Counted from the stretch's first letter, positions 8,010-33,650 are shown. The stretch is 54,134 nucleotides of DNA from Candidatus Hodarchaeota archaeon (GCA_016839785.1 JAEOTQ010000189.1:1-54134); one strand, 5' to 3'. The notes: generated by a model not told the origin, from the sequence alone. Numbers and translations: made by a program.

Positions 8010-9059
8010 TTGTTGGAAATGGAATATGAAATTAAGATATTTGACCCTAAAAGTGCTTCAGATGCATTATGGGATAGTTTTTTGAGTTTAGAAGAAGAAA
8101 AATATCATGAAGAATATCCAGATGATCCTATTCCTGCAAAAGAAGAAACAAAAAAAACATTTCTATTCCCTAGTCCAAGATATACGAATATTTACTGGAT
8201 TGCACATCCCGAGGGAAAAGAAAATATACTTGGTTCTGCCAGCTTAATGATTTACGAAAAAAACCAGCCGTCTTATGAACAAAATAAGCATATGGCATTT
8301 TTACATATTGCCGTGAGGAAAAAATATCGTCGAAAAGGAATTGCGACCTCGATTCTGAAAAAAAACTTAGATTGGTTGAAACAGAATAGTAAAACCGTTC
8401 TACAAGGTGGTAGTCAACTGGAATCCGGAAAATTGTATTGTGCTTCTCTAAATGGAAAAAAAGCAATGACTGAAGAGGAAAGTCGACTATCACTAGACAA
8501 TATGAATTGGGATATGTTAAATGAGTGGAAGAATTCTGGTAGCCAACGAGCTAAAGGAGTAACGCTTGAGCAGTTCGAACAGGTTCCAGAAGAAGATATT
8601 GAAGAATTTTGTCAGCTTTTCACTGAAACCCTTAATCTGATACCCAGAGGGGAGTTAGAATGGGAAGCTAAAGAAACTCCTGAGGTACGAAAAGCCACAG
8701 AAGAACGACTTGCTAAATTAAAAACTACAAGAACAACCTTCGTCTCGAGAGAAAGTGAGGGTATACTCAGTGGATTAACAGAGACATTTTTGTTCAATGA
8801 TCGTCCCACACTTCTCTACCAAGGATTAACAGGAGTAAAGAAGGAATATCAAGGGAAAGGTCTTGGTAAATGGCTAAAAGCAGAAATGCTTTTCTATTGT
8901 AAAAAGAAGTTTCCTAACATTAAATTTGTCGCAACTGATTTTGCTCTTGTAAATGAGCCAATGATTGCAATAAACAGGAAACTTGGATTCAAGCACTACA
9001 GAACATGGGTTGACTACAAGTTCGATGTGGAAGAACTAGCCAAAACGGTATTACGTTAA
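8010..9059 (+). CDS. Tandem GNAT-family N-acetyltransferase
   Basis: Two acetyl-CoA binding motifs (VRKKYRRKGIA and VKKEYQGKGLG) and NEPMIAINRKLGF. Confidence 0.9.
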   Translation: MLEMEYEIKIFDPKSASDALWDSFLSLEEEKYHEEYPDDPIPAKEETKKTFLFPSPRYTNIYWIAHPEGKENILGSASLMIYEKNQPSYEQNKHMAFLHIAVRKKYRRKGIATSILKKNLDWLKQNSKTVLQGGSQLESGKLYCASLNGKKAMTEEESRLSLDNMNWDMLNEWKNSGSQRAKGVTLEQFEQVPEEDIEEFCQLFTETLNLIPRGELEWEAKETPEVRKATEERLAKLKTTRTTFVSRESEGILSGLTETFLFNDRPTLLYQGLTGVKKEYQGKGLGKWLKAEMLFYCKKKFPNIKFVATDFALVNEPMIAINRKLGFKHYRTWVDYKFDVEELAKTVLR

Positions 9060-9109: not shown

Positions 9110-9637
9110 CTAACCTAATTGAAAAGTCTTGATGTTACCCTCAGGATTTCTCATGCTGTTAAAAACTTGAATATATTGATCCTCAGTTAGATTGGGTTTT
9201 TCTGAAATCTTAAGATGTTCAGATAAGAACCCTAAGGATAGAACATTTACAGCTCCAGTTACTTTGTTTTCATCAGCCCGACGAGTAATTGGTACTCTAT
9301 GCATCTTACCTTTTGTGATTGTTTTTTCTGCAATATCATCGATTGAGTCGGTGTCAACATAAGATATCGTATTTTCAGAAATACATTCGGCAGCGCGCTC
9401 AAAACCTTTTTGATCAAGAGCGATAAAGTAATCTGCGTCTGCATCGCAATAAGGATACGCTATTGGTTCCGAACTAATAACTACGTCACTGAAAATCGGA
9501 CCACCCCTTACAGAAGGTGTATAATCAACAGTAAGTGTAGCGTTAAGATCAGCCGCCATTGCAACTCTTACTAGTGCACTACCAAGGAATTTTATTCCTT
9601 GCCCCCCACGTCCGGAGAAACGAAATTTTACTTTCAT
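9110..9637 (-). CDS. korC: 2-oxoacid:ferredoxin oxidoreductase gamma subunit
   Basis: RFSGRGGQG and DYTPSVRGGPIFSDVVIS motifs; divergent from the delta-alpha-beta genes. Confidence 0.85.
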   Translation of the reverse strand: MKVKFRFSGRGGQGIKFLGSALVRVAMAADLNATLTVDYTPSVRGGPIFSDVVISSEPIAYPYCDADADYFIALDQKGFERAAECISENTISYVDTDSIDDIAEKTITKGKMHRVPITRRADENKVTGAVNVLSLGFLSEHLKISEKPNLTEDQYIQVFNSMRNPEGNIKTFQLG

Positions 9638-9911
9638 AAGTCAGTCATTCCTATTATTTTAAGGTAATCTATTGCTTTTGCTTGAATAACTTCCGTGTCT
9701 TACTTAAATATTTTGGAGATAAAAGTAGTTATATTGTAAATATGAGTAATTATTTTGTAGATATGAATAATCTGTCATATGTCTTTGATCAAGAAACAGA
9801 TTTAAAAACCTCAACATCAAAACGTGAATACAATAAAGATGTATTTACTGGATGATCAAATCAATTTATAGATAACAATCTATTGTTCAAATACCAAGAA
9901 GAGGAAAAGAA

Positions 9912-10193
9912 ATGTTAAACTCGAAAAGAACACCTATGTTAGAGCCTCCAAAAGCCGACAAAGAGTATGAAATTAAAGTTTATACTGATATTTGTGATGG
10001 GTGTGAGTTATGTGTAGAATTTTGTCCATGTAATGTCTTAGAAATTGATATGGACTCCTTTAACAGCCGAATGCTTCACTATGTTAAGGCTAGTGCTCTG
10101 GATAAGTGTACAGGCTGTAAACAATGTGAACGAATATGTCCCACGGTATCAATCATGGTATTAGAAAAAGAAGTACCTCAGGAGGATAAATAA
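9912..10193 (+). CDS. korD: 2-oxoacid:ferredoxin oxidoreductase delta subunit (2[4Fe-4S] ferredoxin-like)
   Basis: Two CxxCxxCxxxCP motifs; directly upstream of the alpha subunit. Confidence 0.85.
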   Translation: MLNSKRTPMLEPPKADKEYEIKVYTDICDGCELCVEFCPCNVLEIDMDSFNSRMLHYVKASALDKCTGCKQCERICPTVSIMVLEKEVPQEDK

Positions 10194-11357
10194 ATGCCTA
10201 GTACAAGCAAATCATCCTCTAAGTCAAAATTGATATTGACTACAGGAAATTATGCTTCAGCTGAAGGCGCTATTGCAGTTGGATGCCGCTTCTTTGCCGG
10301 CTACCCAATAACACCATCATCTGAAATAGCACACTATATGTCGCGTCGTCTTCCGCAAGTAGGAGGGTCATTCATCCAAATGGAAGATGAACTTGCGTCA
10401 ATCGTTGCAGTTGTGGGTGCTTCTTATGCAGGAGTCAAAGCGATGACTGCTACTTCAGGTCCAGGTTTGTCTTTGATGGCGGAAACTGTCGGATTGGGAT
10501 TTATGTTAGAGGCACCAATGGTAATTGTTACGGTTATGCGTGGCGGTCCCAGTACAGGGCAACCCACAAAGGCGTCACAGTCTGATGTGATGCAAACACG
10601 GTATTTATCCCATGGTGATTACGAAATGATTGTTCTAGCGCCTGCTACGGTGCAGGAATGTTACGATTTTTCAATTAAAGCGTTTAATCTGGCCGAAAAG
10701 TATAGAACACCAGTAATAGTTGCCACTGATGGAATAGTGGGGCAAATGATGGAACCAGTTTCTTATCATTCCAATTTTGAAGTAATTACTAGAAAAGGGC
10801 CTCAAGTTCCCCCAGATAAGTATCAACCTTTTGAAGTTCTTGACGATGACTTGGTACCTGGAATGGCAACTGCTGGGTCAGAATATAATTTCTACGTAAC
10901 AGGACTTACACATGACAATACTGGAAGTCCTGATATGACTCCCGAGAGGGAAATTGAACTTGTCAAACGTTTATGCGATAAAATACGACGTGCTCGTCCC
11001 GATATAAACGACTGGGAAGAAAAATATCTAGAAGATGCAGAAACAGTAATTCTCTCTTATGGTATAAATTCTCGTGGTAATCCAGAAGCCGTCGCGCAAG
11101 CTCGTAAAAAAGGACATAAAGTTGGGTATGTTCGACTTAAAACTATATGGCCATTCCCTGATGAACTTATGGAACGATTTGGAAAGTTAGGAGTAAAAAA
11201 GGTACTTGTAACTGAAATGAACTATGGTCAGATTATCCGAGAAGTCGAACGGTTTAGACACCTAGGATTTTCAGTTTCTGGGTTATTAGTACCCACTACA
11301 ATACCATTTAGTCCTGCTTTCATCTATGAAGGCTTAATGAAGGAGGTTAACAGATGA
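10194..11357 (+). CDS. korA: 2-oxoacid (probably 2-oxoglutarate):ferredoxin oxidoreductase alpha subunit
   Basis: FAGYPITPSSE, QMEDE, TATSGPGLSLM and RGGPSTG motifs. Confidence 0.9.
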   Translation: MPSTSKSSSKSKLILTTGNYASAEGAIAVGCRFFAGYPITPSSEIAHYMSRRLPQVGGSFIQMEDELASIVAVVGASYAGVKAMTATSGPGLSLMAETVGLGFMLEAPMVIVTVMRGGPSTGQPTKASQSDVMQTRYLSHGDYEMIVLAPATVQECYDFSIKAFNLAEKYRTPVIVATDGIVGQMMEPVSYHSNFEVITRKGPQVPPDKYQPFEVLDDDLVPGMATAGSEYNFYVTGLTHDNTGSPDMTPEREIELVKRLCDKIRRARPDINDWEEKYLEDAETVILSYGINSRGNPEAVAQARKKGHKVGYVRLKTIWPFPDELMERFGKLGVKKVLVTEMNYGQIIREVERFRHLGFSVSGLLVPTTIPFSPAFIYEGLMKEVNR

Positions 11358-12220
11358 CGACATCAAATGAAGTATTTGTACCAGATCTTGACTATCCAGA
11401 AGATCATCCGCTACATGGACGCTTAAACCTCAACAGGTTTATATTCTGCCCAGGTTGTTTAATTGGAACCGCAATTACGTCTATCACTACATGTTTAGTT
11501 GAGAGAGGATTAACACCTAAAGACTATGCAATTGTCTCAGGAATTGGTTGTACAGGGCGATCAAGTGGCTGTTTCAAAGCGCCCGCGTTTCACGCTACCC
11601 ATGGTCGTGCTATTCCTTTTGCAACGGGATTAAAACTTGCGAATCCAGATTTGGAAGTATTTGTATTGTCTGGAGATGGTGATCTGTTTGCTATCGGGGG
11701 TAATCATTTCATTCATGCATGTCGAAGAAATGTCGAAATCAATGTCATTTGTAACAATAATGGAATTTATGGTATGACTGGAGGACAGTGTGCTCCAACG
11801 ACTTCCATTGGTGATTTTACCTCAACTTCTCCATATGGAAATATTGAACCTCCTTTTAATCTAGTTTCCTTGGCAGCAGCAGCAGGTGCTTCTTTTGTTG
11901 CGCGTTGGCCTGGGTATGACACACTAAGATTAAGAGAAAGTATATTCAAAGCCATGGATAATCCTGGCTTTAGTTTCATTGAAGTTCTTGCTCCCTGTTT
12001 CACTCAATATGGGAGGAAAAACAAGAGGGGTGATGCAGTGAAAATGTTGGAATGGCTCAGGGAAATGGTCGTTATTGATAAAAATTGTCCACCTCATGAA
12101 GCAGAATATTCTCATGAAAACCAAAGAATAGTATGTGGAGAATTTGTCAATAATCCAAGGGAAGGGTTTTCAGAGAAAATTAAGAAACTTAGAGAGACAG
12201 CGCAAAGCAGGAAAAAGTGA
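11354..12220 (+). CDS. korB: 2-oxoacid:ferredoxin oxidoreductase beta subunit (TPP-binding)
   Basis: FCPGC, SGIGC, HGRAIP and GDGD...NNGIYGMTGGQ TPP motif. Confidence 0.9.
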   Translation: MTTSNEVFVPDLDYPEDHPLHGRLNLNRFIFCPGCLIGTAITSITTCLVERGLTPKDYAIVSGIGCTGRSSGCFKAPAFHATHGRAIPFATGLKLANPDLEVFVLSGDGDLFAIGGNHFIHACRRNVEINVICNNNGIYGMTGGQCAPTTSIGDFTSTSPYGNIEPPFNLVSLAAAAGASFVARWPGYDTLRLRESIFKAMDNPGFSFIEVLAPCFTQYGRKNKRGDAVKMLEWLREMVVIDKNCPPHEAEYSHENQRIVCGEFVNNPREGFSEKIKKLRETAQSRKK

Positions 12221-12241
12221 AAAGGCATCAGGTGAGAATCA

Positions 12242-14632
12242 ATGACAGAAAGTGTAGACAATGTTGAACAAGATGTGAAAGTGGGTGTTTTTCTATGCAA
12301 ATGTGGAAAGAATATCGCTGGATCAGTAGATATCGATAAAATTGCAGAGCAAGTTAAGGATTTACCTAATGTCGAACTAGTTCAAGTAAATACGTATACC
12401 TGCTCAGACCCAGGTCAAGTAGAAATTGAAACAGCAATAAAAGAACAAGGAATTGAAAGAATTGTTGTCTCTGCTTGTTCCCCACGCTTGCATGGTCCAA
12501 CTTGGAAAAAATTAATGAAAAGAAGCGGTATGAATCCAGAAGTTGTCGAAGTTGCTAATATTCGAGAACAATGCTCATGGGTTCATCTTCATGATAAAGA
12601 AGAGGCTACTGTTAAGGCGATGGAATTAACTGAAATGGCCGTAGCGAAAGCAGCAATGCTTGAACCTGCTGAAGCTACAGTAGTTCCTGTTGAAAAACGC
12701 GTTCTTATTATTGGCGGTGGTGTTGCAGGAATTCAAGCCGCCTTGGATTTAGCTGATGATTATAAAGTAGTTTTGGTTGAAAAAAGTCCCACTATAGGTG
12801 GGAACATGGCATTAATCGATAAAACTTTCCCTACGATGGATTGTTCAATTTGCATTTTGGGTCCTAAAATGGCAGATGTAGGCAATCATGATAATATTTC
12901 ATTAATTGCGAATGCGGAAGTCACTAAAATTTCGGGCTATGTGGGTAATTTTCAAGTTGAAGTTAAAAAACAACCCAGATATGTTGATGAAGATCTCTGT
13001 ACAGCATGCAATGACTGTGTGGATATTTGTCCTGTTAATGTTATTGATGAATATTCAGGAAACTTAGGATGGAGAAAAGCCATCTATATTCCGTATCCCC
13101 AAGCAGTCCCCGCCAGTTATATCATTGATACAGATAATTGTCTTGGTTTAGACGTTCTTGCTTGTGGAAAATGTAAGTCTACATGTGAGAAGGAAGCTAT
13201 TAATTATGAGGATTTGGAAAAAACCTACAAGTATAAAGTGGGTACCATTATTATCTCAACGGGTTTTGAGATGTTTGATGCCTCCAAGATTCCAGAATAC
13301 GGATGGGGCAATTATCCAAATGTAGTTACAACTTTTGAGTTTGAACGATTAATTAATGCTGCTGGTCCAACTTCAGGAGATCTCGTTCGTCCTAGTGATC
13401 TTAAACGTCCCAAAAGTGTAGCTTTTATTCAATGTGTCGGATCGCGTGATCAACGATATAATCCTTACTGCTCAAATTATTGCTGTATGGAGACTATAAA
13501 GGATACTCTGCTAATCAAAGAGCATTGGCCAGATGTCGACATCTCTGTCTTCTTCATTGACATAAGAGCATTTGGGAAAGGGTTTGAAGAACTTTATACT
13601 CGTTCTAGAAGAGAAGGTGTTAAGTACATTCGAGGACGTCCCTCTCAAGTTCAACAGACTGGTCCAAATAATAATCTTATTGTTTCAGTGGAAGATACTA
13701 TGACTGGAACGTTAATTAACAAGGAATTTGAAATGGTTGTGTTGTCAATTGGTGCTGAAGGTCCTAGTTCAAATATTCCTTTCCCAGTAGCAAAAGATAC
13801 TCATGAATTTTATATTGAATCGCACCCGAAGCTTCGTCCAGTAGATACACCCACAGATGGTATCTTCATTGCAGGAGGAGCTGAATCACCAAAAGATATT
13901 CGTGAAGCAGTTACCCAAGCAAGTGCTGCAGCAGGACGAGTCACCAGAGTCTTAACCAAAGGTGAGTTTTCGGTCGAACCTTTATACGCGGTAGTAAATG
14001 CTGAGCTCTGTAATTCATGTGGAATCTGTGCAACCCGATGTCCATATAATGCCATAACAGTAGATAAAGAGAAAAAGACCCCTGCTCATGTAATTCCCGT
14101 TCTATGTAAAGGTTGCGGTACATGTGCCGCTGATTGTCCCCAAGATGCTATAATGATGACGAATTTCACAGATGCAATGATTTTAAGGCAGGTCGATATC
14201 GCATTAAGGGACAATGCCGATGAGAAAGTCATGATTTTTGCTTGTAACTGGTGCTCATACGGAGGGGCTGATTTGGCTGGAACTAGTCGAATTCAGTATC
14301 CTACCAATTCACGTGTAGTGCGAGTTATGTGTTCTGGCAGAATTGACGTAGATTTTATCAAGCGTGCTTTTGAACTCGGAGCTGGTTCTGTAATGCTGAC
14401 AGGTTGCCATCCCCAAGATTGTCATTACATCTCTGGTAACGATTTCGCCATTAAACGTGAACGAAAGATTCGTCGCTGGATGAAGAAGCAAGGAATATCT
14501 GATGATCGCTTTATCATTGAATGGATGTCCGCTGCTGAAGGAAAGAAGTTTGCAGATGTAGTTACCAAAATGGCTGGAATTGCAAAGAAGAACCACAAAG
14601 CAAAACACGTCTCTGAGAAAGCAACAGCATAA
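12242..14632 (+). CDS. hdrA: Heterodisulfide reductase subunit A fused to a C-terminal MvhD domain
   Basis: VFLCKCG, ANIREQCSWVH, GGGVAG FAD site, DKTFPTMDCSIC, EFERL, QCVGSRD...YCSNYCC, two ferredoxin domains, then MvhD motifs CNWCSY, VMCSGR, GCHPQDCHY. Confidence 0.93.
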   Translation: MTESVDNVEQDVKVGVFLCKCGKNIAGSVDIDKIAEQVKDLPNVELVQVNTYTCSDPGQVEIETAIKEQGIERIVVSACSPRLHGPTWKKLMKRSGMNPEVVEVANIREQCSWVHLHDKEEATVKAMELTEMAVAKAAMLEPAEATVVPVEKRVLIIGGGVAGIQAALDLADDYKVVLVEKSPTIGGNMALIDKTFPTMDCSICILGPKMADVGNHDNISLIANAEVTKISGYVGNFQVEVKKQPRYVDEDLCTACNDCVDICPVNVIDEYSGNLGWRKAIYIPYPQAVPASYIIDTDNCLGLDVLACGKCKSTCEKEAINYEDLEKTYKYKVGTIIISTGFEMFDASKIPEYGWGNYPNVVTTFEFERLINAAGPTSGDLVRPSDLKRPKSVAFIQCVGSRDQRYNPYCSNYCCMETIKDTLLIKEHWPDVDISVFFIDIRAFGKGFEELYTRSRREGVKYIRGRPSQVQQTGPNNNLIVSVEDTMTGTLINKEFEMVVLSIGAEGPSSNIPFPVAKDTHEFYIESHPKLRPVDTPTDGIFIAGGAESPKDIREAVTQASAAAGRVTRVLTKGEFSVEPLYAVVNAELCNSCGICATRCPYNAITVDKEKKTPAHVIPVLCKGCGTCAADCPQDAIMMTNFTDAMILRQVDIALRDNADEKVMIFACNWCSYGGADLAGTSRIQYPTNSRVVRVMCSGRIDVDFIKRAFELGAGSVMLTGCHPQDCHYISGNDFAIKRERKIRRWMKKQGISDDRFIIEWMSAAEGKKFADVVTKMAGIAKKNHKAKHVSEKATA

Positions 14633-14690
14633 TTAAGCCATTTTCTATTCATTTTTTCCCTTTTTTTCTATCTCTGTATTTTTATTCAAA
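14633..14690 (+). terminator. U-rich archaeal terminator region
   Basis: Multiple T tracts directly after the hdrA stop. Confidence 0.5.
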
Positions 14691-17083: not shown

Positions 17084-19012
17084 ATGGTTTCAATTGCAAA
17101 AAAAATTCTACAAGACCACCTTGTTGAAGGTAAGTATGAAATAGGAGAAGAAATAGGTATCCGGATCGATCATACTCTAACCCAGGATGCTACAGGAACA
17201 ATGGCTTATCTTCAATTCGAGGCAATGGGGCTTGATAAAGTAAAGACAGAACTATCTGTTTCGATTGTAGATCACAATACGACTCAATCAGATTTTAAAA
17301 ATCCAGATGATCATCGTTACTTACAATCTGTTGCCGCAAAATATGGAATCCAATTTTCAAGACCAGGGAACGGTATTTGTCATCAAGTGTTCCTTGAACG
17401 GTTTGCTACTCCAAGTAAAACGTTAATTGGATCCGATTCTCATACTCCGACGGCTGGAGGGATGGGTACTATTGCTATAGGTGCTGGAGGCCTAGATGTA
17501 GCTGTAGCAATGGGTGGTGGCCCATTTTATCTGAAAACTCCCAAGATTGTCGGAGTAAAATTATCTGGAGCATTGCCAGATTATGTTGCCGCGAAAGATG
17601 TCATCTTAGAAATCCTCCGTAGAATCAATGTCAAAGGCGGAGTAGGGAAAATCCTTGAATATTTCGGTCCAGGGGTCAAAACACTTTCAGTACCTGAAAG
17701 AGCAACCATTACTAATATGGGAGCAGAAACAGGAGCAACGACCTCTATTTTTCCATCAGATGAAGTGACAAAAGAATTTTTAAAATGGCAAAAAAGAGAA
17801 TCAGACTGGGTAGAGCTTCCAGCAGGTGAAGATGGAGATTTTGATGAGATTATTGAGATAGATCTTTCAGAAATTGAACCTCTTGTAGCGAAGCCTCATT
17901 CTCCAGGAAATGTTGTACCGTTATCCGAACTTTATGGAATGAAGGTTGATCAGGTAGCAATAGGTTCTTGTACGAACAGTTCACTCAAGGATATGCTTAC
18001 TGTGGCTGCTCTTCTTAAAGGACGCAAAATTCATTCAGATACCGTTTTAGGAATATCTCCAGGATCTAGACAAGTCTTGATGGAATTGGCTAAAAATGGA
18101 TCTTTAGCTGATGCAATCACGGCTGGTGCCCGAATACTCGAGAGCGCCTGCGGTCCATGTATCGGAATGGGATTTGCTCCTAAGACCGATGCTGTGGCAG
18201 TGCGTACATTTAATCGTAACTTTTTTGGACGAACTGGAACAAAAAGTGCAAATGCATATCTTGTAAGTCCTGAAGTGGCTGTTGCTGCCGCGGTGTTTGG
18301 AGAATTTACTGATCCTAATAAATTGGGTGCTTATCCTAAGATCAATATTCCCAATGAGATAGAAATCGATGATTCAATGATCCTTAAACCTTCCGCATCA
18401 CCAGCAGATATTTCGATCATTCGTGGACCAAATATAGCTCCATTACCTGAGTTTCAATCCCTCCAAGATGATTTTGAATTCAAGGTTCTCATAAAAACAG
18501 AGGATGATGTTACCACTGATCATATCATGCCTGCTGGGTCAAAAATTCTACCTCTCCGGTCAAATCTCCCTGAAATTAGTAAACATGTGTTTGAACAGGT
18601 AGATGCTTCTTTTCCAGAAAGAGCGCTCAAAAGCAAGGAAGAAGGTGGTGGAATCATAATTGGTGGTGAAAATTACGGTCAGGGTTCTAGTCGAGAACAC
18701 GCTGCGTTAGCTCCTATGTATTTGGGAATAAAGACGGTTCTTACAAAATCCTTTGCTCGTATACATCGGGATAATCTCGTTAACTTTGGTATCTTGCCTT
18801 TAACCTTCAAAAATGATGGAGACTATGATCGAATAAAAAGCGGTGATATTCTCGAAATTAAAGGAGCCCAAAAGGCATTAAAAGAGAATCTACCGATTTC
18901 AGTTCATAATCGAACTCAGAATTTTGATATAGAGACTTCATATGATTTTTCAGAACGGGAACGCGAAATTCTTTTAGCTGGGGGAAAGCTCCGTTATACA
19001 GTAGCATCCTAA
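17084..19012 (+). CDS. acnA: Aconitate hydratase (short, approx. 640-aa type)
   Basis: TLTQDATGT, GICHQ, GSDSHT, IGSCTN, CGPCIG, RTFNRNF, TTDHI and NYGQGSSREHAA motifs. Confidence 0.93.
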   Translation: MVSIAKKILQDHLVEGKYEIGEEIGIRIDHTLTQDATGTMAYLQFEAMGLDKVKTELSVSIVDHNTTQSDFKNPDDHRYLQSVAAKYGIQFSRPGNGICHQVFLERFATPSKTLIGSDSHTPTAGGMGTIAIGAGGLDVAVAMGGGPFYLKTPKIVGVKLSGALPDYVAAKDVILEILRRINVKGGVGKILEYFGPGVKTLSVPERATITNMGAETGATTSIFPSDEVTKEFLKWQKRESDWVELPAGEDGDFDEIIEIDLSEIEPLVAKPHSPGNVVPLSELYGMKVDQVAIGSCTNSSLKDMLTVAALLKGRKIHSDTVLGISPGSRQVLMELAKNGSLADAITAGARILESACGPCIGMGFAPKTDAVAVRTFNRNFFGRTGTKSANAYLVSPEVAVAAAVFGEFTDPNKLGAYPKINIPNEIEIDDSMILKPSASPADISIIRGPNIAPLPEFQSLQDDFEFKVLIKTEDDVTTDHIMPAGSKILPLRSNLPEISKHVFEQVDASFPERALKSKEEGGGIIIGGENYGQGSSREHAALAPMYLGIKTVLTKSFARIHRDNLVNFGILPLTFKNDGDYDRIKSGDILEIKGAQKALKENLPISVHNRTQNFDIETSYDFSEREREILLAGGKLRYTVAS

Positions 19013-19050
19013 GTGGTAAACTACCACTTCCCTTTTTTCATTCCAATTTT
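19011..19050 (+). terminator. Hairpin plus U-tract terminator
   Basis: AAGTGGTA-AAC-TACCACTT followed by CCCTTTTTT right after the aconitase stop. Confidence 0.6.
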
Positions 19051-19272
19051 TTAACGTCGAGTTAATCGGACGAGTACAAATATTCCAGGAACTACAACAA
19101 AAACCAAGCTAGCAATTAGAATCACTAGAATTAAGTAAGATCCATCAGGATTAGTGGTTGTTTCAGGCTCAGTTGTTCTGAGCACAAAATTGACGATAAA
19201 AAAGAGTACTCCCATTATCAGTATGAAAACACTAATGGCGATTCTGTATATTTTGTCCAATCGATAACTCAC
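19051..19272 (-). CDS. Small two-TM membrane protein
   Basis: Two hydrophobic helices linked by a Thr-rich loop; basic C-terminus. Confidence 0.6.
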   Translation of the reverse strand: MSYRLDKIYRIAISVFILIMGVLFFIVNFVLRTTEPETTTNPDGSYLILVILIASLVFVVVPGIFVLVRLTRR

Positions 19273-19308
19273 CTTTAAGCTATAGATTTGAAATCCAGTC
19301 TAATTAGC

Positions 19309-19752
19309 TTACTTTCCCATTTTATTAATAATTTGCTGATGAGATTCACCATGAATATGAGCATGAAACTCAGTTGAATCACAATACTCACATTGTCGAA
19401 CCTTGGAACGATCCTCTGGGAACCTCCACGTGTGACCACATTTATCACAATGGAAGAAATCCGAAGGGTTTGATATCCGAATAGCAAATCCAAGTACTAA
19501 AGCTTTGGCTATTTTATTGTGAGCTTCTTCTAAATGCCGTGAAACAGTTGATTGGGAAATATTCATTTCCTCAGCAACCTCGATCTGTTTCTTGCCTTCT
19601 AAATCAGTTAGTCGGATCGTTTCTAGCTCTTCGAGAGTAATATCCACTTCACCAGAGATATCCTTCATAGGAATCCCGCGTGGTTTAAAGTAAAACTGGG
19701 TTGGATCACATTTAATAATTCTTGAACTTTTAGGGCGTGGTAAAGTTTTCAA
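19309..19752 (-). CDS. DUF134 family HTH protein with a C-terminal zinc ribbon
   Basis: PRPK..R, YFKPRGIP, EELETIRLTDLEG..Q.EVAEEMNISQST, CDKC...CEYC. Start uncertain (TTG at 19752). Confidence 0.85.
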   Translation of the reverse strand: MKTLPRPKSSRIIKCDPTQFYFKPRGIPMKDISGEVDITLEELETIRLTDLEGKKQIEVAEEMNISQSTVSRHLEEAHNKIAKALVLGFAIRISNPSDFFHCDKCGHTWRFPEDRSKVRQCEYCDSTEFHAHIHGESHQQIINKMGK

Positions 19753-20055
19753 CTCCACGGAACACTTGTAAAACACAATTCAATAGGAGATTTCTCAGAT
19801 AATCTCTCGACACCATATATTGATAAACTGAGTGGACACGGAAAAAGGGGATTAAACGAGTTTCTCAAAAACTTCCGAAATGAAATTTATACACTAATTT
19901 TCAACAATTCTCACAAAAGTGTGTGTTGAAGATTTAACTGGTCCTAAAACCTCTATCGGGTATTTAAAAGCAGAACTTTTGGGGAAAAATTAAAAGTATT
20001 CCAAAATGACTAAATTGGAAAAAAAAGACAAGAAACTTGAATAAATTAAACGGCC

Positions 20056-20397
20056 TTAAACATCATCTTTCTTAGATAATGCCTCAAGTCTCTTTTCTAT
20101 ATTTTCAATTTCCTTTTTCAGTCCACTCAAGGTCTCTTCTAGATATCTAGTTTCATCCTCAGGGGTGAAATGAGGTGAAAAAGGAGGTATCGGTGTTGGT
20201 TGATCTAGCGGGTAAAAATTTCGTCCTGGATAAAATCCTCGACCTCCTCCCCAACCTCGTCCTCCTCCATAACCACGACCCCACCCAATACCAGAACCTT
20301 TTGCATAACCAGGTGCAGAATAACCTGAACAATAACCTAATCCTCGACCTGACCGAGGCCCTTGTCCCCATGGACCTGTTCTATTTCCTCTTGGCAA
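20056..20397 (-). CDS. DUF5320 family Gly/Arg-rich protein
   Basis: MPRGNRTGPWGQGPRSGRGLGYC N-terminus (TTG start after GGTGA), GRG repeats, C-terminal coiled coil. Confidence 0.85.
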   Translation of the reverse strand: MPRGNRTGPWGQGPRSGRGLGYCSGYSAPGYAKGSGIGWGRGYGGGRGWGGGRGFYPGRNFYPLDQPTPIPPFSPHFTPEDETRYLEETLSGLKKEIENIEKRLEALSKKDDV

Positions 20398-20418
20398 TTT
20401 TATCACCAACGAGCTATT

Positions 20419-20445
20419 GCACAAAAGGCTATATAAATTTTGTGC
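20419..20445. promoter_or_regulatory. Inverted repeat flanking a TATA-like box upstream of the DUF5320 gene
   Basis: GCACAAAA-N11-TTTTGTGC; the spacer reads TTTATATAG on the minus strand. Confidence 0.5.
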
Positions 20446-20644
20446 TAATGAACAAAAAATAGATATTAATTTTAACTTCTTGAAATCATCTATATTTGCA
20501 TTATTTATAGCTAAATCCGAAATTATGGGTGATTGATTGGGAAAAATTAATTAAGTGATTCAAAATCTAAATTGAATAGAGAATAATATTTTTTGCAATC
20601 GCTCATTTCTCTAAATAATAATCCCTGAATTAACTTATTGGAGT

Positions 20645-20974
20645 GTGATTAAAATTAGAGGTCCCCATGGAGGCAGAGGTAGAGGAGGAGGAAGAGGAAG
20701 GCAATTTAGAGGGGGAAGACCTCGAATTCAACCACATATTGATCGTGAGTGGAGTTCTACCTCAGGTGAAATTGTGTTAAAGCTTACAAATGTCGAATTA
20801 GAGGCACTTCGTTTAGTGGATAAACTTGGTTTAACCCAAGAACAAGCTGCTGCACGAATGCATATATCAAGAGGGTCATTATGGCGAATTCTTCAAGAAG
20901 CGAGGACCAATGTGATCTCTGCACTAACTGCTGGAAAATCACATATTCATGTACAAATTCGTGATGGAAGCTAA
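20645..20974 (+). CDS. DUF134 family HTH protein with an RGG-rich N-terminus
   Basis: ELEALRLVDKLGLTQEQAAARMHISRGSLWRIL; N-terminal GGRGRGGGRGR. Confidence 0.82.
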   Translation: MIKIRGPHGGRGRGGGRGRQFRGGRPRIQPHIDREWSSTSGEIVLKLTNVELEALRLVDKLGLTQEQAAARMHISRGSLWRILQEARTNVISALTAGKSHIHVQIRDGS

Positions 20975-20997
20975 TAAACACAGAATGAAGTCTTTCT

Positions 20998-21393
20998 TCA
21001 ATCCATTCCAGAAACCTTCAGGGGTTTAATACGATAAATTACCCTTATTTCTTCACTCGTTCTGTAAGGATACTTATCCATTCCAAGATATTTTTTCGCT
21101 AGTAAATCAATATGCTCATCTGCTCCTTCAGTAGTACGTTCTTCAACTTTCCCCCTAATTGCTACATAACTGTAAGGATTGTCAGGGTCCTGAATGGATA
21201 AGGCTACAACAGGTTGTGCTTTCAGGTTACGATCTTTTAAGCGATCAATTGCAGAATTGATCCTTATAAACCCATTTTCCACGTCGAACCATACAGGCGT
21301 TGTCTGAGGTGAACCATCTGCCATGATAGTCGCTAGATGTGCAAATCCCTTCTTACCCAATATATGTTCATACTTTGTCAACATTTTAATCAT
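20998..21393 (-). CDS. PPOX-class (pyridoxamine 5'-phosphate oxidase-like) putative F420-dependent oxidoreductase
   Basis: AHLATIMADGSPQTTPVW, KDRNL, DPDNPYSYVAIRG and LAKKYLG..YP motifs. Confidence 0.88.
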   Translation of the reverse strand: MIKMLTKYEHILGKKGFAHLATIMADGSPQTTPVWFDVENGFIRINSAIDRLKDRNLKAQPVVALSIQDPDNPYSYVAIRGKVEERTTEGADEHIDLLAKKYLGMDKYPYRTSEEIRVIYRIKPLKVSGMD

Positions 21394-21571
21394 CTTTAGA
21401 TCTCTAATGTTACACTGAATCAAAAATTATTTTAAATCAATCTCTCTGAAATTCTGAGTTCAAATAGTGTATATTAGCAAATACATCACAGTTTATTTGG
21501 GATTTCGCATAGGGGATCTTAAATAATTATCAATTGTTATGTTGATCTATAATCTAGTAGGTGAAAATAAA

Positions 21572-22471: not shown

Positions 22472-22591
22472 AATATTTCTTATCAAAACAAAATTGCTTA
22501 ATTCTCCCCTTCCTCCCTTTTTTTCTCTCGAAGTTAGTAGATGTTCTCAAAGATACCAGAAATAGGAACTGATTTTTGAACTGGGAGTTAC

Positions 22592-23221
22592 TCACTTGGA
22601 AATTTTCATAGTCATTTCAAGTCCATTAGGAAGAAAGGGTAAGGTTACACTTGACAGCTTTGGATGAGTATTAATGAACTCCATAAGTTCCTCACATATT
22701 TCTGGATCATCTTTATGGATATCTGGACAGTCAAGAACATTATCGGAAAGGATAACTCCTCCCATGCGAAGTTTCTTTAAAGAAAGTTTGATAAAATCAA
22801 TGTAATCACGTTTATCGGCATCTAAAAAAACAATATCGAGGGGATCGGTTATTTTGTTCAGAACCTCTCGTGCATCCCCTAAAATAAGCTCAACATTATC
22901 TTCCAGTCGGGTTATCTTTAAATTTTCCTCTGCCCGAACTATCTTCTCTGGTAATATATCAACTGAGATTACTTTCCCATTTTCTTCCTTGGCAGCAGAA
23001 GCAAGCCAAATTGTTGAATAACCAAATGATGTCCCTATTTCTAGAATTCTTGTTGCTTTCATTGCACGACTTAATAGATAAAGGAACTTCCCCTCTTCTC
23101 GGGTTATTGCCAATGATCGTTCTTTTTTAAGAATCTGTTCTCCTCTTAACTCTTTCTGAATTTCATATTCCCTATATTTTTCAAGTTGTGCTAATACCGT
23201 TTCTATCTTTTTTGGAAGCAT
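22592..23221 (-). CDS. O-methyltransferase (caffeoyl-CoA/COMT-like family)
   Basis: ILEIGTSFGYSTIWLA, VFLDADK..Y and DNV motifs. Confidence 0.9.
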   Translation of the reverse strand: MLPKKIETVLAQLEKYREYEIQKELRGEQILKKERSLAITREEGKFLYLLSRAMKATRILEIGTSFGYSTIWLASAAKEENGKVISVDILPEKIVRAEENLKITRLEDNVELILGDAREVLNKITDPLDIVFLDADKRDYIDFIKLSLKKLRMGGVILSDNVLDCPDIHKDDPEICEELMEFINTHPKLSSVTLPFLPNGLEMTMKISK

Positions 23222-23903: not shown

Positions 23904-25103
23904 TTATTGGTAACCTTTCCACTTTTGTTCAAGATCAGGAGATTTAATGGTCTCAATGATATACTTGGCCATTTCTTCACCAGTTACACCAGTATCTCGA
24001 CCTGTAACAACCATTTTCTTTTCATATTGGGAACAAATATCCAATGCTCTATCAAGCTTTGCAGATTCGTCTGTGTACCCAATGTGATTAAGAAGCATGG
24101 CAGCTGCCTTGATCATACTGGTAGGATCCGCATATTTTTCACGGCCCTCATCAACCATTTTTAAAGCGCTTCCGTGAACAGCTTCAAACATGGAATATCT
24201 CTTACCAATGTTAGCTGCGCCAGCAGTACCTAATCCACCTTGAATCTGAGCTGCTTCATCTGTTATAATGTCACCATATAGATTAGGTGCGGTAATAACT
24301 CGGAAAGAGCTCTGTCGAGCAGGATCGATTAATTTGGCGGTCATTATGTCAATATACCAATCATCCCATTCAACTTGTGGATATTCCTTTGCTACCTGCT
24401 CTGCCATCGCAAGAAACTTTCCATCGGTTCTTTTAACAACATTGGCTTTTGTAACAACAGTTACCTTGTTAATATTGTTCTTACTTGCATATTCAAACGC
24501 TGCACGAATAATCCGTTCAGAACCTTGATTTGTGATTACTTTGAAATCGACTGCAAGGTCATCAGAAACATCTACACCTTTACTCCCTAAAACATATGCA
24601 CCTTCAGTGTTTTCTCGGTAAAACATCCAGTCAATATTCTTTTCAGGGACGCGAACAGGGCGAACATTAGCAAATAAATCTAGTTCACGTCTCATGGAAA
24701 CATTAGCACTTTCAATATTGGGCCAGCCATATTTATTGCCCTTCCAAGGGGTTGTAGTTGGACCCTTTAATATTGTGTGACACTCTTTTAATTCAGCTAA
24801 AACATCATCAGGAATTGCTTTCATTACTTTAACTCGATTTTCTATCGTCAGTCCATCGATTCTGCGTATCTCAACTTTTCCTGATTTAATTTCAGAATCA
24901 AGTAAAAAGTTGAGGACTATGATCGCAGCTTCAGTAATAGCTGGTCCAATACCATCACCACTACAGGCTCCGATGATGATTTTATCTAGACTGGAAAAAT
25001 CTGTCCAATCGGGTTCATGTTTCATTCTTTCTACCCGTTCGAGTTGTTCTCGTACAAGGTTCGCAAAATGGTCAGTTGCTTTCTTAACTTGTTCTTCTGT
25101 CAT
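23904..25103 (-). CDS. icd: Isocitrate dehydrogenase (isocitrate/isopropylmalate dehydrogenase family)
   Basis: GDGIGP, LKGPTTTP, SANVSMRRELDLFANVRP, RENTEG.Y, KANV, NLYGDIITDEAA, FEAVHGSA. SxN plus the Arg pattern favours isocitrate. Confidence 0.85.
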   Translation of the reverse strand: MTEEQVKKATDHFANLVREQLERVERMKHEPDWTDFSSLDKIIIGACSGDGIGPAITEAAIIVLNFLLDSEIKSGKVEIRRIDGLTIENRVKVMKAIPDDVLAELKECHTILKGPTTTPWKGNKYGWPNIESANVSMRRELDLFANVRPVRVPEKNIDWMFYRENTEGAYVLGSKGVDVSDDLAVDFKVITNQGSERIIRAAFEYASKNNINKVTVVTKANVVKRTDGKFLAMAEQVAKEYPQVEWDDWYIDIMTAKLIDPARQSSFRVITAPNLYGDIITDEAAQIQGGLGTAGAANIGKRYSMFEAVHGSALKMVDEGREKYADPTSMIKAAAMLLNHIGYTDESAKLDRALDICSQYEKKMVVTGRDTGVTGEEMAKYIIETIKSPDLEQKWKGYQ

Positions 25104-30520: not shown

Positions 30521-32353
30521 CTAATCGGCGAAAAGAATTTCATCCCAAGGCTGACGATATAAAGCTGCTCGTTGGCGTTTTTGATCAAAAATATGACCCA
30601 TCATACCAATAGAACGACCAAGAACAAAGAAACCATTTAACATTTCAGTGTCAACAACATCGTTCTTTTCTTCTTCAGACAGATCTAAATTTTCAAGTAA
30701 ATCCATAAAGCAGATACCTATGCACCCATCGACGTTGAGGATTAAATTATTCCGTTTGGAGGTAGTAATCTTTTCTACTTCAAGGGCATAGTCCAAGAAT
30801 GGATGTTTTTCAAAGTTATTAAAAACAAACTCTTTAAGGAGCTTGACACGGACATCAGGATTTTGAACAGATTTTATTCGGTGCCCAATTCCAGGAATAT
30901 TGATACCTACGACATTCTTCATATAATCGACAAATTCCTGTGGTGCCATCTTTTTGTCCATTGCCAATTTGATATATTTTGCAGTATCAGAAATAGCTCC
31001 ACCAAACCGTGGACCTATTGTTAAGATTCCAGTTGCTAGAGCAGACATTAAATCTTTTCCTGCTCGGGCGGTGACAATCGCATTATGAGCACCAGATACA
31101 GCAGGACCGTGGTCTGATGTCAGCTTAATAACAATTTCAATATAGTCCTGAGCAAACTTTGGCAATTCCTTCTTAAACCACAATATTCCAATGGTGTACC
31201 CAATAGATTTGTTTTCACTAACCAGAGTATCCAATCCCACTCCTGAAAACATGGGAACATCCCCTCGTTCATCAGAAATAGTGCTAATAACGTCCGTAGG
31301 TCGTCGAACAATTCCTAGTTTGGCAGCTTGGGCATAATCCATAGGTAATTTTGGGGGTTCAAACTCATCTACAGGATCAATTTTTCCTTCGGCTTTAAGT
31401 TTTTCAAAGGTTTCTTTGATCTTATCACCTAAATCGTCATAAGAATCAGGAACAATAACACCTACTTCAGCAAGAGCTTTATTCTTAGCATGAGCTGTTT
31501 CTAGATCACTACCTGCCATAGCACCCGCATGACCGAATTGTAAGCCTGCAGGAAGAAGCGCTGCTGCTGTACCAATACACCACATAACGAGGGGTTTGGT
31601 AAGTCTACCATCTTTTATTGCATTGACGATGTCAATTTCTCCAGTACCACCCACTTCACCTAAGCACACCATCATTTTGATTTTGGGATTGACCTCGTAT
31701 CTTAGGAGATGATCAAGTAAAGAAGAACCAGCATATCGATCGCCTCCGATAGCAATACCTTCAAAGACTCCATCAGAATTCTGAGCAATCATAAAGTTCA
31801 TTTCATTGCTCATCCCTCCGCTTTTGGAGACAAAACCAACACTTCCTGGCCGGTAAAGCTTGGATAAAACAACATTTTCTATTGTACCAGCAGTATTTCC
31901 GATTTTAAATGCACCTGCTTGAATTCCTCCAACAGTAGCAGGACCAATGATTACTTTTCCTTTTTCCTTTGCGAGCTTATTCATTTCTCTACTTCTTCGT
32001 TCAGGAATTCCTTCAGCAATAACTGCGACAGTTTTAATTGTCTCTGCATTCAATGCTTCCATAGTTGTAGGATAGGCTGAACGGAAAGATGAGAAGTTGA
32101 TGAGAACGTCAGCATCAGGATGATTTTTAATGGCTAGGGCTAATTTCCGATAAATTGGGACGACTATCTCAGTACCACCCCAGAAGACTTTATGGTAACC
32201 AATAGCACCAGCTTGACTGGGACGAATAATTGCTGCGACTGAAGATGTTTTTCGTTTGCACACAAAATCAAAGTCAAGCATTCGTTGAATAGCATTTCGC
32301 TGAAAACCATAAATTATGGCTTTAGTGTTCCGATTAAATAATTCTCTTGTCAT
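30521..32353 (-). CDS. aclA: ATP citrate lyase large subunit (CoA-binding, phospho-His and citryl-CoA lyase domains)
   Basis: QRMLDFDF, NFSSFRSA, IIGPATVGG, SKSGGMSNE, QFGHAGA (phospho-His), DHGPAVSGAHN, PGIGHRIKS, LILNVDG. Confidence 0.96.
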   Translation of the reverse strand: MTRELFNRNTKAIIYGFQRNAIQRMLDFDFVCKRKTSSVAAIIRPSQAGAIGYHKVFWGGTEIVVPIYRKLALAIKNHPDADVLINFSSFRSAYPTTMEALNAETIKTVAVIAEGIPERRSREMNKLAKEKGKVIIGPATVGGIQAGAFKIGNTAGTIENVVLSKLYRPGSVGFVSKSGGMSNEMNFMIAQNSDGVFEGIAIGGDRYAGSSLLDHLLRYEVNPKIKMMVCLGEVGGTGEIDIVNAIKDGRLTKPLVMWCIGTAAALLPAGLQFGHAGAMAGSDLETAHAKNKALAEVGVIVPDSYDDLGDKIKETFEKLKAEGKIDPVDEFEPPKLPMDYAQAAKLGIVRRPTDVISTISDERGDVPMFSGVGLDTLVSENKSIGYTIGILWFKKELPKFAQDYIEIVIKLTSDHGPAVSGAHNAIVTARAGKDLMSALATGILTIGPRFGGAISDTAKYIKLAMDKKMAPQEFVDYMKNVVGINIPGIGHRIKSVQNPDVRVKLLKEFVFNNFEKHPFLDYALEVEKITTSKRNNLILNVDGCIGICFMDLLENLDLSEEEKNDVVDTEMLNGFFVLGRSIGMMGHIFDQKRQRAALYRQPWDEILFAD

Positions 32354-32366: not shown

Positions 32367-33650
32367 TTAGCTGTCTCCTTTGAGTGATAATGGTACGATC
32401 CGTGTCATATGAGTGTACCTATCATAAACCTCAATAGGAACGCCAATCTCTTCACCGACATCTTTCATTAGTTTGAGGCCTTCCTTTTCATTAGGGCCGC
32501 CTCTTCGGACATATATTTTCACGTTAGCATTCTTTAATTTGTTAGCAGATTTACGTAATGCTGCTACAATACCCATGAAGGTTGCTTTCACATCTGTGAA
32601 GTTTGCAATACCTCCACCGATAAGTAAGATTTTAGGTCGTCCTTGAGGATCAGGTTTTTCTGTTAACACATCAATTACGGTTTGTGCATAGAGTTCTGTA
32701 TGTTCTCTATTGGGATTACCAGAATATTCACCGTAATTACCTAATTCTTTCGCAAATCCCATATCAGCTATTGTATCTGTATATACAACTGAACCACCAC
32801 CACCAGCTACCATAGTCCAAACACGGGCATCTCTATTTAAAATAGTAAATTTCAAAGATGCACCTGTTTTTTCATCCATATCGGCTACAAATTGCTCTTC
32901 TTTAGATAAAACTTGACCAAATGCTCGGGGAAATTTAATGGGCTTGTCTGGATTTGCCCAGGTCTCAATATGTTGGAAGCTTGCAGTATCATCTAATTTC
33001 GCTTTCAGATCTAAGGGAACTACTTTTCCTTCGGGGGTTACAGCAAACGGATTAATTTCAAGAAAGGCAAAATCTTGATCTATATAAACCTTTAATAAAC
33101 CTTTAATGAAGGCAATCAAAGTATCTTTGAGATCACCTAAATCTGGTAATTTACTAGCGAAATCAAACGAATCTACATCAGTACCTATAGGAACAGGAAC
33201 ATGAGTGACTTTATCCCAGTTTTCTTCAACAAATATACCGCCTTCAAAGGAAAAGTGAATGGTATCACTATCCATATCTGAAGTTATTGATACATAAAAT
33301 TCCTTTTCATGGGGTACAAAGGGTTCAACTAGGAATCGGGTAAGAGTTCCTTTTATTCCACCTAATTCGATTTCTTTGTTCATCCTCTCATTAATAAATG
33401 CTTTCAATCCCTCTAGATTGGCATCCAATAATAAAAGGTTAGCTTTACCTCGTTTTCCGAAAAGCTGATCAGGTTTTGCCGCTAGCTTATCTGTATTGAG
33501 CCAAGGATTCTCGGCTACTAATTTGTCCCAATCAGTATCAGGAGTTAATACAGCAAGTTTCCCGTGATAATTGTATGCGGGAAAATACTTTGGCAGTTCC
33601 GTCATCAGTAATTTTTTAGCAGAAAATTCATATATACTCTTTTGTGCCAT
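32367..33650 (-). CDS. aclB: ATP citrate lyase small subunit (ATP-grasp and citrate-binding domains)
   Basis: KPDQLFGKRGK, LEINPF, KLDDTA, VWTMVAGGGGSVVYTD, NYGEYSG, GGIANFTDV, RRGGPN. Confidence 0.96.
   Translation of the reverse strand: MAQKSIYEFSAKKLLMTELPKYFPAYNYHGKLAVLTPDTDWDKLVAENPWLNTDKLAAKPDQLFGKRGKANLLLLDANLEGLKAFINERMNKEIELGGIKGTLTRFLVEPFVPHEKEFYVSITSDMDSDTIHFSFEGGIFVEENWDKVTHVPVPIGTDVDSFDFASKLPDLGDLKDTLIAFIKGLLKVYIDQDFAFLEINPFAVTPEGKVVPLDLKAKLDDTASFQHIETWANPDKPIKFPRAFGQVLSKEEQFVADMDEKTGASLKFTILNRDARVWTMVAGGGGSVVYTDTIADMGFAKELGNYGEYSGNPNREHTELYAQTVIDVLTEKPDPQGRPKILLIGGGIANFTDVKATFMGIVAALRKSANKLKNANVKIYVRRGGPNEKEGLKLMKDVGEEIGVPIEVYDRYTHMTRIVPLSLKGDS

Follow-up and report, generated by a model that had tools for sequence, protein, structure and literature searches.

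Genomic linkage of a 2-oxoacid:ferredoxin oxidoreductase operon to an hdrA-mvhD fusion gene in a Candidatus Hodarchaeota archaeon, with a predicted electron-transfer coupling of their products

2-Oxoacid:ferredoxin oxidoreductases work at about -500 mV, and in anaerobes the supply and disposal of electrons of such low potential bounds fermentation, syntrophy and carbon fixation by the reductive tricarboxylic acid (TCA) cycle. The known partners of HdrA are hydrogenase, formate dehydrogenase, formylmethanofuran dehydrogenase (Fmd), MetFV and Flox and, to our knowledge, the characterisation of each has brought to light a new electron-bifurcating reaction. Here we describe a gene unit, korD-korA-korB-hdrA-mvhD, in which the genes of a 2-oxoacid:ferredoxin oxidoreductase (Kor) are followed by a gene for an HdrA-MvhD fusion protein. 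It lies in a stretch of 54,134 nucleotides (JAEOTQ010000189.1:1-54134; hereafter the window) from the genome of a Candidatus Hodarchaeota archaeon (GCA_016839785.1; 4.04 Mb in 248 contigs, 84.5% complete), in which the window lies on contig C168. On balance we lean towards the reading that kor and hdrA-mvhD form one conserved functional unit with direct electron transfer, Kor probably acting on 2-oxoglutarate and the proteins probably forming a physical complex; if true, this would add an enzyme of central metabolism to the list of HdrA partners.

The closest described systems are archaeal Hdr complexes and one bacterial gene cluster. The heterodisulfide reductase HdrA2B2C2 of Methanosarcina acetivorans depends on ferredoxin and F420H2, and its HdrA2 alone carries out ferredoxin-dependent reduction of coenzyme F420, for which NAD is no substitute (PMC5296606). 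The low-potential electrons of HdrA exit via its inserted ferredoxin domain and the others via HdrBC (PMC9012536), and Hdr supercomplexes with formylmethanofuran dehydrogenase have been purified (PMC12054007). The bacterial cluster is known by name, as 'HdrAL/POR' of Syntrophobacter fumaroxidans (Sfum_0012-0018), and has not been characterised (PMC5947623).

With HdrA2 of M. acetivorans ('type Ia') the window protein shares the C-terminal MvhD fusion, and the flavin adenine dinucleotide (FAD), [4Fe-4S] and [2Fe-2S] MvhD sites are retained. Its gene, however, does not stand alone but in an operon with korDAB, and an HdrB/C partner, if any, is not adjacent; the organism is no methanogen, and CoM-S-S-CoB is an unlikely substrate. 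Its HdrA (residues 11-659) and MvhD (660-778) parts align to those of the MvhAGD-HdrABC/formylmethanofuran dehydrogenase supercomplexes (5ODC, 7BKB, 8RVU). The concept that would be shared with the latter is the direct passage of low-potential electrons from the HdrA flavin to a CO2-handling enzyme, a likeness of working and not of membership: MvhA/G was not found in the genome, no Fmd takes part, and the proposed partner is instead a 2-oxoacid oxidoreductase dependent on thiamine pyrophosphate (TPP). Compared with KorABCD/OorDABC enzymes, all four subunits are present with the expected domains, and solved relatives include the 2-oxoglutarate synthases 8YS5 and 6N2N; here, however, the gene for the gamma subunit stands apart, the operon includes a fifth redox protein and 2-oxoglutarate-specific models score under their cut-offs. 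The bacterial HdrAL/POR form likewise has Kor-type oxidoreductase genes linked to an HdrA-MvhD homologue, to which bacteria add an HdrL-like protein of ~1120 amino acids (aa) and an MvhD-HdrC-HdrB protein. Among HdrA-based bifurcating systems, the archaeal korDAB-hdrA-mvhD is a new minimal variant of a gene association already named, and uncharacterised, in bacteria.

The list of open reading frames (ORFs) places the unit at 9912-14632 on the plus strand as one compact co-directional set, in which korD and korA are separated by 0 bp, korA and korB overlap by 4 bp and korB and hdrA lie 21 bp apart. The unit and its flanks comprise the following features.

9110..9637, minus strand: korC, gamma subunit, divergent from the operon (PF01558 POR, 3.9e-22, and NCBIfam gamma-subunit models)
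9638..9911, no strand assigned: divergent intergenic region, 274 bp, A+T-rich (sequence reading)
9912..10193, plus strand: korD, delta subunit, 93 aa, ferredoxin-like (Fer4 families)
10194..11357, plus strand: korA, alpha subunit, 387 aa, abutting korD (POR_N, 7.2e-70, and PFOR_II)
11354..12220, plus strand: korB, beta subunit, TPP-binding, 288 aa (TPP_enzyme_C, 4.6e-33)
12221..12241, plus strand: korB-hdrA spacer, 21 bp (AGGTGA at 12230-12235, 6 nt 5' of the ATG)
12242..14632, plus strand: hdrA-mvhD fusion, 796 aa, type Ia, 'HdrA2'-like (Pfam, NCBIfam and PDB alignment)
14633..14690, plus strand: T-rich stretch 3' of the stop codon (sequence reading)

A previous interpretation of this DNA (the sequence-only reading) had described korD, korA and korB as abutting or overlapping and hdrA as following after 21 bp with its own AGGTGA ribosome-binding site, all of which the ORFs and the sequence bear out. 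It had identified korD, korA and korB correctly and overlooked the divergent gamma gene; once korC is counted the four-subunit set is complete, alpha, beta, gamma and delta domains all having been found. The U-rich terminator that it placed at the end of the unit is present in so far as T-runs of 4, 6, 7 and 5 occur in the 55 nt after the hdrA-mvhD TAA (14630-14632), and within the operon T-runs occur only there. A scan for hairpin-type terminators, which models bacterial terminators only, found none after this stop codon. Going by general knowledge of archaeal termination, 14633-14690 is likely to be an oligo-T termination region. A scan for bacterial-type promoters and terminators gave nothing meaningful for an archaeon; the region 9638-9911 presumably holds the promoters of both korC and korD-korA-korB-hdrA.

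The linkage of kor to hdrA recurs widely within the phylum. A search with HdrA of 301 genomes of the phylum returned 29 loci in 29 other genomes, with orthologues of 74–96% identity (12 in family f1 and 17 in f14). KorB was encoded directly upstream of hdrA-mvhD on the same strand in 28 of these, and the 29th locus stops two bases from the hdrA match. The korB-hdrA spacer, estimated in 35 related loci with a heuristic choice of start codons, had a median of 18 bp (range -29 to 32 bp). From the KorA side, homologues at E <= 1e-90 were present in 53 of the 71 genomes of the class, and in every one of the 18 loci examined (18 genomes; f1, f2, f3, f4, f6 and f7) an HdrA gene lay downstream of korA-korB(-korC), on the same strand and within ~3.5 kb. 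HdrA and MvhD are fused in f1 and f2, whereas those f3 and f7 loci in which both were seen encode them separately. Gene order also varies: hdrA2 precedes korDABC in G012 and follows it in G259, and in G092 korDAB is followed, after a 700-bp gap, by hdrA2-hdrC-hdrB. The Kor link is thus kept despite changed gene order and fusion state, the usual signature of functional coupling, and by synteny a predicted functional coupling between Kor and the HdrA flavin is well supported.

The position of korC provides a comparison for this linkage. Family f14 has it co-directional with the operon, whereas in the window genome and G190 it is divergent; in the same-genus G256, whose chromosome is complete, it lies 2.3 Mb from korDAB-hdrA2 and ~1.2 kb from hdrC-hdrB (L167 8344-11404), and in G102 (L181) it heads a korC-hdrCB-hdrA-mvhD operon that faces korDAB-hdrA2. 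Hence hdrA-mvhD is more faithfully attached to korDAB than is korC, a genuine Kor subunit. The proximity of korC and hdrC-hdrB in G256 was considered as a further Kor-Hdr link and was not used as evidence, given its sulfur-relay neighbours (DsrE, SQR-like flavoprotein) and the absence of the arrangement in G208.

Outside the phylum, 80 loci were obtained from a species-level genome collection, a locus being counted as linked if korA or korB occurred within the DNA examined around hdrA-mvhD. By this definition 29 of the 80 were linked. Homologues of at least 49% identity were linked in 28 of 51 cases, and in 27 of 36 when the count was restricted to loci with 7 kb or more of upstream DNA; of those under 49% identity, 1 of 29 was linked. 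In a FastTree phylogeny (122 rows), a single clade of 85 rows with local support of 95% takes in 58 of the 59 that are linked, and many of its unlinked rows are truncated contigs. The remaining linked row, L149 from family f7, is on the other side of the tree, and the Kor link therefore exists in two HdrA lineages. The sequence-only reading had called for a survey of kor-hdrA-mvhD neighbourhoods, and the adjacency proved not to be unique to this genome (28/29, 18/18 and 29/80 loci). The unit is found in six families of the class to which the window belongs, in another Asgard class and in several bacterial phyla, and this recurrent pairing in archaea and bacteria probably marks an uncharacterised handling of very low-potential electrons.

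The module of f1 and f2 resembles that of f14, a family of a different class (HdrA ~75% and KorA ~74% identity), more than it does those of its own class (46% and 54%, respectively, against f3 and f7); between Asgard archaea and bacteria, HdrA and KorA are each ~50–55% identical. From these identities the kor-hdrA-mvhD block has probably moved laterally as a unit, which fits a self-contained functional module; related loci are therefore not independent observations. Lateral movement of the whole block can also preserve chance neighbours, and the fact that f1/f2 is nearest to f14 would agree with an adjacency devoid of functional meaning, whether inherited synteny or hitch-hiking in the transfer. 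We regard this explanation as highly improbable, because the link recurs with varied gene order and whether mvhD is fused or split, and because it is shared by two distinct HdrA lineages (L149 and the main clade) and by several bacterial phyla.

The bacterial clusters, from Desulfobacterota, Chloroflexota, Planctomycetota and others, typically have korA-korB-korC ~5–7 kb upstream of hdrA-mvhD. In a Desulfobacterium sp. scaffold (L041) the interval between kor and hdrA holds two genes. One encodes a 1122-aa protein of the 'HdrL' type (as defined in PMC2702500), in which ferredoxin motifs accompany a NAD(P)H module that resembles GltD (Fer4_20, Pyr_redox_2); the second encodes a 528-aa MvhD-HdrC-HdrB fusion. 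Among the 29 linked loci an HdrL-like gene was present in 17 and an MvhD-HdrCB gene in 21. The bacterial HdrA-MvhD proteins are ~50–53% and the KorA proteins ~50% identical to those of the window. Both additional genes are absent from the window and from the Asgard loci of f1, f2 and f14, and close orthologues of either bacterial protein were not found in the window genome (best identities 31–32%). The L041 cluster may be the counterpart of Sfum_0012-0018, which it matches in gene number only (seven each); Sfum_0012, Sfum_0015 and Sfum_0018 are not listed in the supplements of PMC5947623. In the portions available, the literature on Asgard archaea, anaerobic methanotrophic archaea (ANME) and HdrA diversity (PMC7015854, 10.1101/2025.02.26.640444, PMC11291895, PMC9012536, PMC12054007, PMC11237513) does not mention an archaeal korDAB-hdrA/mvhD operon; Pereira et al. 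2011 and Appel et al. 2021 may describe the bacterial cluster. The suggestion of the sequence-only reading that the module is possibly undescribed can thus be kept for the minimal archaeal form, for which no description was found, and not for the bacterial version, which already bore the name HdrAL/POR in PMC5947623. As a separate observation, the HdrA-MvhD homologue of L041 has an in-frame TGA (8593-8600) where the window protein has Cys204 (DCSI-C-ILGPKM), likely a selenocysteine codon; several Asgard HdrA matches also have single in-frame TGA codons.

The cofactor sites of the fusion protein appear intact. Pfam and NCBIfam models identify Pyr_redox_2/FAD, 4Fe-4S and FlpD (MvhD) domains, and the NCBIfam HdrA2 model NF040770 scores 1088.8 bits, marginally short of its cut-off of 1100. 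The HdrA part aligns end to end and with no large gaps to 5ODC_A (E 1.3e-219). The MvhD part (nt 14219-14575) aligns to the MvhD chains of 9SW2, 8RVU, 7BKB and 5ODC with E values down to 2.5e-39, and PF02662 (FlpD) matches residues 663-778 (2.4e-42). The closest named proteins are from Hodarchaeales and Promethearchaeota. Residues E356 and K409 of HdrA hold the bifurcating FAD (PMC12054007); in the alignment with 5ODC HdrA they correspond to E368, within EFERL, and K420, after YCSNYCC, and across 16 homologues K420 never varies, while conservation of E368 is at least 90%. The earlier statement that the EFERL segment and the lysine after the YCS..CC motif are retained is borne out by this alignment and conservation. 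Invariant among the same homologues are C19, C21, C54, C79, C201, C204, C253, C256, C259, C263, C300, C308, C311 and C315, and further C398, C410, C414, C415, C590, C593, C596, C600, C622, C625, C628 and C632. The N-terminal, inserted and C-terminal ferredoxin domains thus have cysteine ligands with little or no variation, and the protein retains ligands for six [4Fe-4S] clusters in addition to the MvhD cysteines.

One deviation concerns the second motif of the inserted ferredoxin domain (residues 300-315), which reads C-x7-C-x2-C-x3-C as against C-x2-C-x2-C-x3-C in solved HdrA, the first spacing being longer by five. This lengthening is present in all 59 kor-linked rows; it was rejected as a diagnostic of Kor binding because it also occurs in some unlinked rows (for example, in f11), and is taken as a clade trait.

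On the oxidoreductase side, KorD has two CxxCxxCxxxCP [4Fe-4S] motifs, whose eight cysteines are invariant in 12 homologues from kor-hdrA loci, and matches the OGOR_delta and OorD models with scores under their cut-offs. KorA passes NF006412 ('2-oxoacid:acceptor oxidoreductase subunit alpha'; 493.5 bits, cut-off 411), its nearest solved chains being 1YD7_A, 8YS5_A (2-oxoglutarate synthase) and 6N2N_A, and the nearest solved chain to KorB is 8YS5_C, the beta subunit of a 2-oxoglutarate ferredoxin oxidoreductase. A tblastn search of the genome turned up no KorC-like gene other than korC. An island of TCA-cycle genes lies 2.5–19 kb downstream of the operon (window 17084-33650), with the following members.

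17084..19012, plus strand: aconitase (Pfam Aconitase, 5.7e-113)
23904..25103, minus strand: isocitrate dehydrogenase (IDH; Pfam Iso_dh, 6.4e-65)
30521..32353, minus strand: ATP-citrate lyase AclB (Citrate_synt, Ligase_CoA, CoA_binding)
32367..33650, minus strand: ATP-citrate lyase AclA (Citrate_bind, Citrate_synth_N)

Aconitase is kept near the operon in the same-genus genomes G256, G139 and G302 (L152, L154 and L186), and IDH and AclB are also near it in G256 and G139 (L152 and L154); the island is not near the operon in family f14. Elsewhere in the genome, a SucC-like gene (349 bits, under cut-off) has a SucD-like neighbour on contig C229, and a succinate dehydrogenase/fumarate reductase flavoprotein is encoded on C62. 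As aconitase, isocitrate dehydrogenase and ATP-citrate lyase adjoin the operon, 2-oxoglutarate is predicted to be the most likely substrate of Kor. The 2-oxoglutarate-specific NCBIfam OGOR models all fall under their cut-offs, scoring 368.3 (cut-off 579) for the alpha, 233.3 (364) for the beta and 50.9 (125) for the delta subunit. ATP-citrate lyase was already known in Asgard archaea (10.1101/2022.10.25.513756; PMC11976288), and its presence keeps a reductive direction open.

A complex of HdrA-MvhD with KorD was predicted with a score of 0.52 (runs 0.52, 0.44 and 0.59), the best of three controls scoring 0.00; the runs agreed in at least 67% of contacts, and the predicted local distance difference test value of the partner was at least 75. 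The mark applied is reached by 58 of 80 solved complexes and by 2 of 110 mismatched pairs, and at scores of at most 0.60 by 7 of the 80 together with both of the passing mismatches. Ferredoxin-like partners of HdrA have already been solved structurally, and the pass of the KorD model may therefore come from likeness to solved HdrA-ferredoxin-type interfaces. The proposal of the sequence-only reading that HdrA-MvhD exchanges electrons with the oxidoreductase thus gains support from synteny and intact cofactor sites as far as coupling is concerned, a complex being only weakly modelled.

In the mechanism that we propose, electrons of very low potential would pass between Kor and the HdrA FAD along chains of iron-sulfur clusters, running from the clusters of KorD to the ferredoxin-side clusters (the low-potential branch) of HdrA, probably within a physical complex and not by way of the free ferredoxin pool. 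HdrA would couple them to another redox partner. For the bacterial systems this could be the products of the neighbouring genes in the cluster, an HdrL-like NAD(P)H oxidoreductase together with MvhD-HdrCB; HdrL (NAD(P)H) and HdrCB (disulfide) would fit a three-way reaction of the Mvh-Hdr-Fmd kind. In the present archaeon the second partner could be an HdrCB encoded elsewhere or a two-electron carrier such as F420. Working oxidatively, the oxidation of 2-oxoglutarate would feed the flavin, followed by confurcation with a thiol donor or by plain transfer to F420 or another carrier; working reductively, bifurcation would force electrons into Kor, which would then carboxylate succinyl-CoA. A stronger form of the proposal, which we consider unlikely, is a hard-wired, ferredoxin-free Kor-HdrA supercomplex that drives the carboxylation of succinyl-CoA to 2-oxoglutarate by bifurcation, or acts in reverse as a confurcating 2-oxoglutarate oxidase. 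If true, it would be the TCA-cycle counterpart of the Hdr-formylmethanofuran dehydrogenase supercomplex of methanogens. The gene unit itself is shared by Heimdallarchaeia-like Asgard archaea, Desulfobacterota and Chloroflexota and, in this genus, is placed within an ATP-citrate-lyase/aconitase/IDH island.

The nature of the second partner depends on the Hdr, hydrogenase and F420 genes present elsewhere. The sequence-only reading had found neither HdrBC nor hydrogenase. This holds for the window, where no CCG (HdrB), NiFe large-subunit or molybdopterin match was obtained on the contig or in its 51 ORFs of at least 90 aa, and does not hold for HdrBC in the genome, in which CCG-domain (HdrB-type) proteins are encoded on six other contigs. 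True Hdr loci are those on C89 and C193. The locus on C89 comprises HdrB, an HdrC/B fusion, a double HdrA of 1043 aa and MvhD; that on C193 comprises HdrA, MvhD and TusA and, at the contig end, an MvhD fragment followed by HdrC and HdrB. A hydrogenase of the Mvh type (MvhA/MvhG) was not found in the 84.5%-complete genome, where its absence is not proven, and neither an [FeFe] hydrogenase, nor a [NiFe] hydrogenase of group 3, nor FrhB/FdhB was found there. The two matches to PF00374 are weak and N-terminal (25.7 and 22.2 bits), both to NuoD-like Complex1_49kDa proteins in Nuo-like clusters (C48 and C13). A molybdopterin protein is encoded beside GltD-like genes on C129. Of a conventional HdrABC-MvhAG complex encoded elsewhere, which had been named as an outcome contrary to the proposed module, one half is therefore present: HdrBC genes exist, and the Mvh hydrogenase was not found. 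We also note that Hdr loci of the genus adjoin sulfur-relay genes, namely TusA, DsrE-like, SQR/FCSD-like flavoprotein and sulfur transporter genes (C193, L158 2379-3155 and 4507-5757; C190, L159 184-937; G256, L167 4980-9713), a neighbourhood which hints that the disulfide substrate of those Hdr proteins may be a protein-bound sulfur carrier.

The HdrC and HdrB genes on C193 bear on a looser form of coupling, in which Kor would reduce free ferredoxin and HdrA-MvhD would act as a ferredoxin-dependent (hetero)disulfide reductase with HdrC/HdrB supplied in trans and no complex. This arrangement would account for co-expression, the product of one partner being the consumable of the other, and agrees with the use of ferredoxin and F420H2 by HdrA2B2C2 of M. 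acetivorans (PMC5296606) and with the occurrence of hdrA2 in ANME largely without gene clustering (PMC9012536). The nearest Asgard relatives outside f1, f2 and f14 have hdrA2-hdrC-hdrB, G092 has korDAB-hdrA2-hdrC-hdrB, and HdrC and HdrB of C193 are 33–47% identical to those encoded after hdrA2 in f5, f11, f17 and f20. However, in the same-genus G208 (L168) hdrC-hdrB of the C193 type follow a second, divergent HdrA-MvhD (32% identity), and the end fragment of C193 in the window genome is arranged alike. The kor-linked copy therefore looks orphaned from HdrCB, and going by these arrangements it may have no HdrCB of its own. As hdrA-mvhD is moreover linked to Kor more tightly than is korC, and the KorD-HdrA model passes, if weakly, against null controls, we hold loose coupling to be fairly unlikely.

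A further possibility is a non-bifurcating 2-oxoacid:F420 oxidoreductase (or one using another two-electron carrier), in which HdrA would gather single electrons from Kor and deliver hydride without HdrBC. The F420-reducing activity of purified HdrA2 with ferredoxin (PMC5296606), two genes for F420 ligases of the CofE type (PF01996) in the genome and the lack of hdrBC in the operon of f1, f2 and f14 are in line with it. It would nevertheless leave the retained MvhD domain and bifurcation residues without a role; type Ia HdrA is without a conventional F420 site, the mechanism being unresolved (PMC12054007), no F420 module of the FrhB/FdhB type was found in the genome, and the bacterial NAD(P)H and HdrCB modules suggest a three-way reaction. 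We therefore judge it decidedly unlikely.

Several observations weigh against our preferred reading of a conserved Kor-HdrA unit with direct electron transfer. Homologues of HdrA-MvhD that are 50–55% identical occur in f11, f17 and f20 in hdrA2-hdrC-hdrB operons with no kor within 8 kb, and for other unlinked homologues (f12, f13, f23, f24 and f25) hdrCB was either a few kb away at most or not detected; a protein of this type therefore works without Kor. HdrB and HdrC on C193 and C89 each stand beside another HdrA, and a partnership in trans like that of HdrA2B2C2, with HdrB/C encoded elsewhere, may exist. The model of a physical Kor-HdrA complex gives weak support, passing narrowly. A Rosetta-stone check found no Kor-HdrA fusion in the best 120 of 521 longer KorB homologues, where only KorB-KorC and KorA-KorB fusions were seen, a point of little weight. 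The HdrAL/POR proteins went undetected in the S. fumaroxidans proteomes under the conditions tested, according to PMC5947623. The electron path, the complex and the direction of the reaction are all inferred, and the substrate is predicted. Finally, the korB-hdrA spacer (12220-12242) was bridged by no contig from RNA libraries, which can hold DNA, and solely by a DNA contig of X1 (11831-12423). Contigs from RNA libraries (run X10, from relatives ~90–98% alike, and one exact contig of X9) did map to korD, korA, the korA/korB junction and hdrA; in view of the possible DNA content, such libraries were rejected as support for co-transcription, showing neither expression nor co-transcription.

Other genes of the window are recorded here as minor observations. 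Downstream of aconitase, at 19309-20974, a DUF5320 gene lies between two DUF134 genes, and a DUF5320 gene also adjoins korC in G256 (L167 10404-10760). The energy metabolism of Hodarchaeales and Promethearchaeota enters models of the origin of eukaryotes; at 53354-53926 on the minus strand the window encodes a 190-aa small GTPase of the Ras/Roc family (Pfam Ras, 1.8e-39), one of the eukaryote-like proteins that are a signature of Asgard archaea. Two calcineurin-like metallophosphoesterases of 457 and 460 aa are encoded in tandem at 36080-38856 on the minus strand, and a LarA-like gene of the lactate racemase family is located at 40900-42264 on the plus strand.

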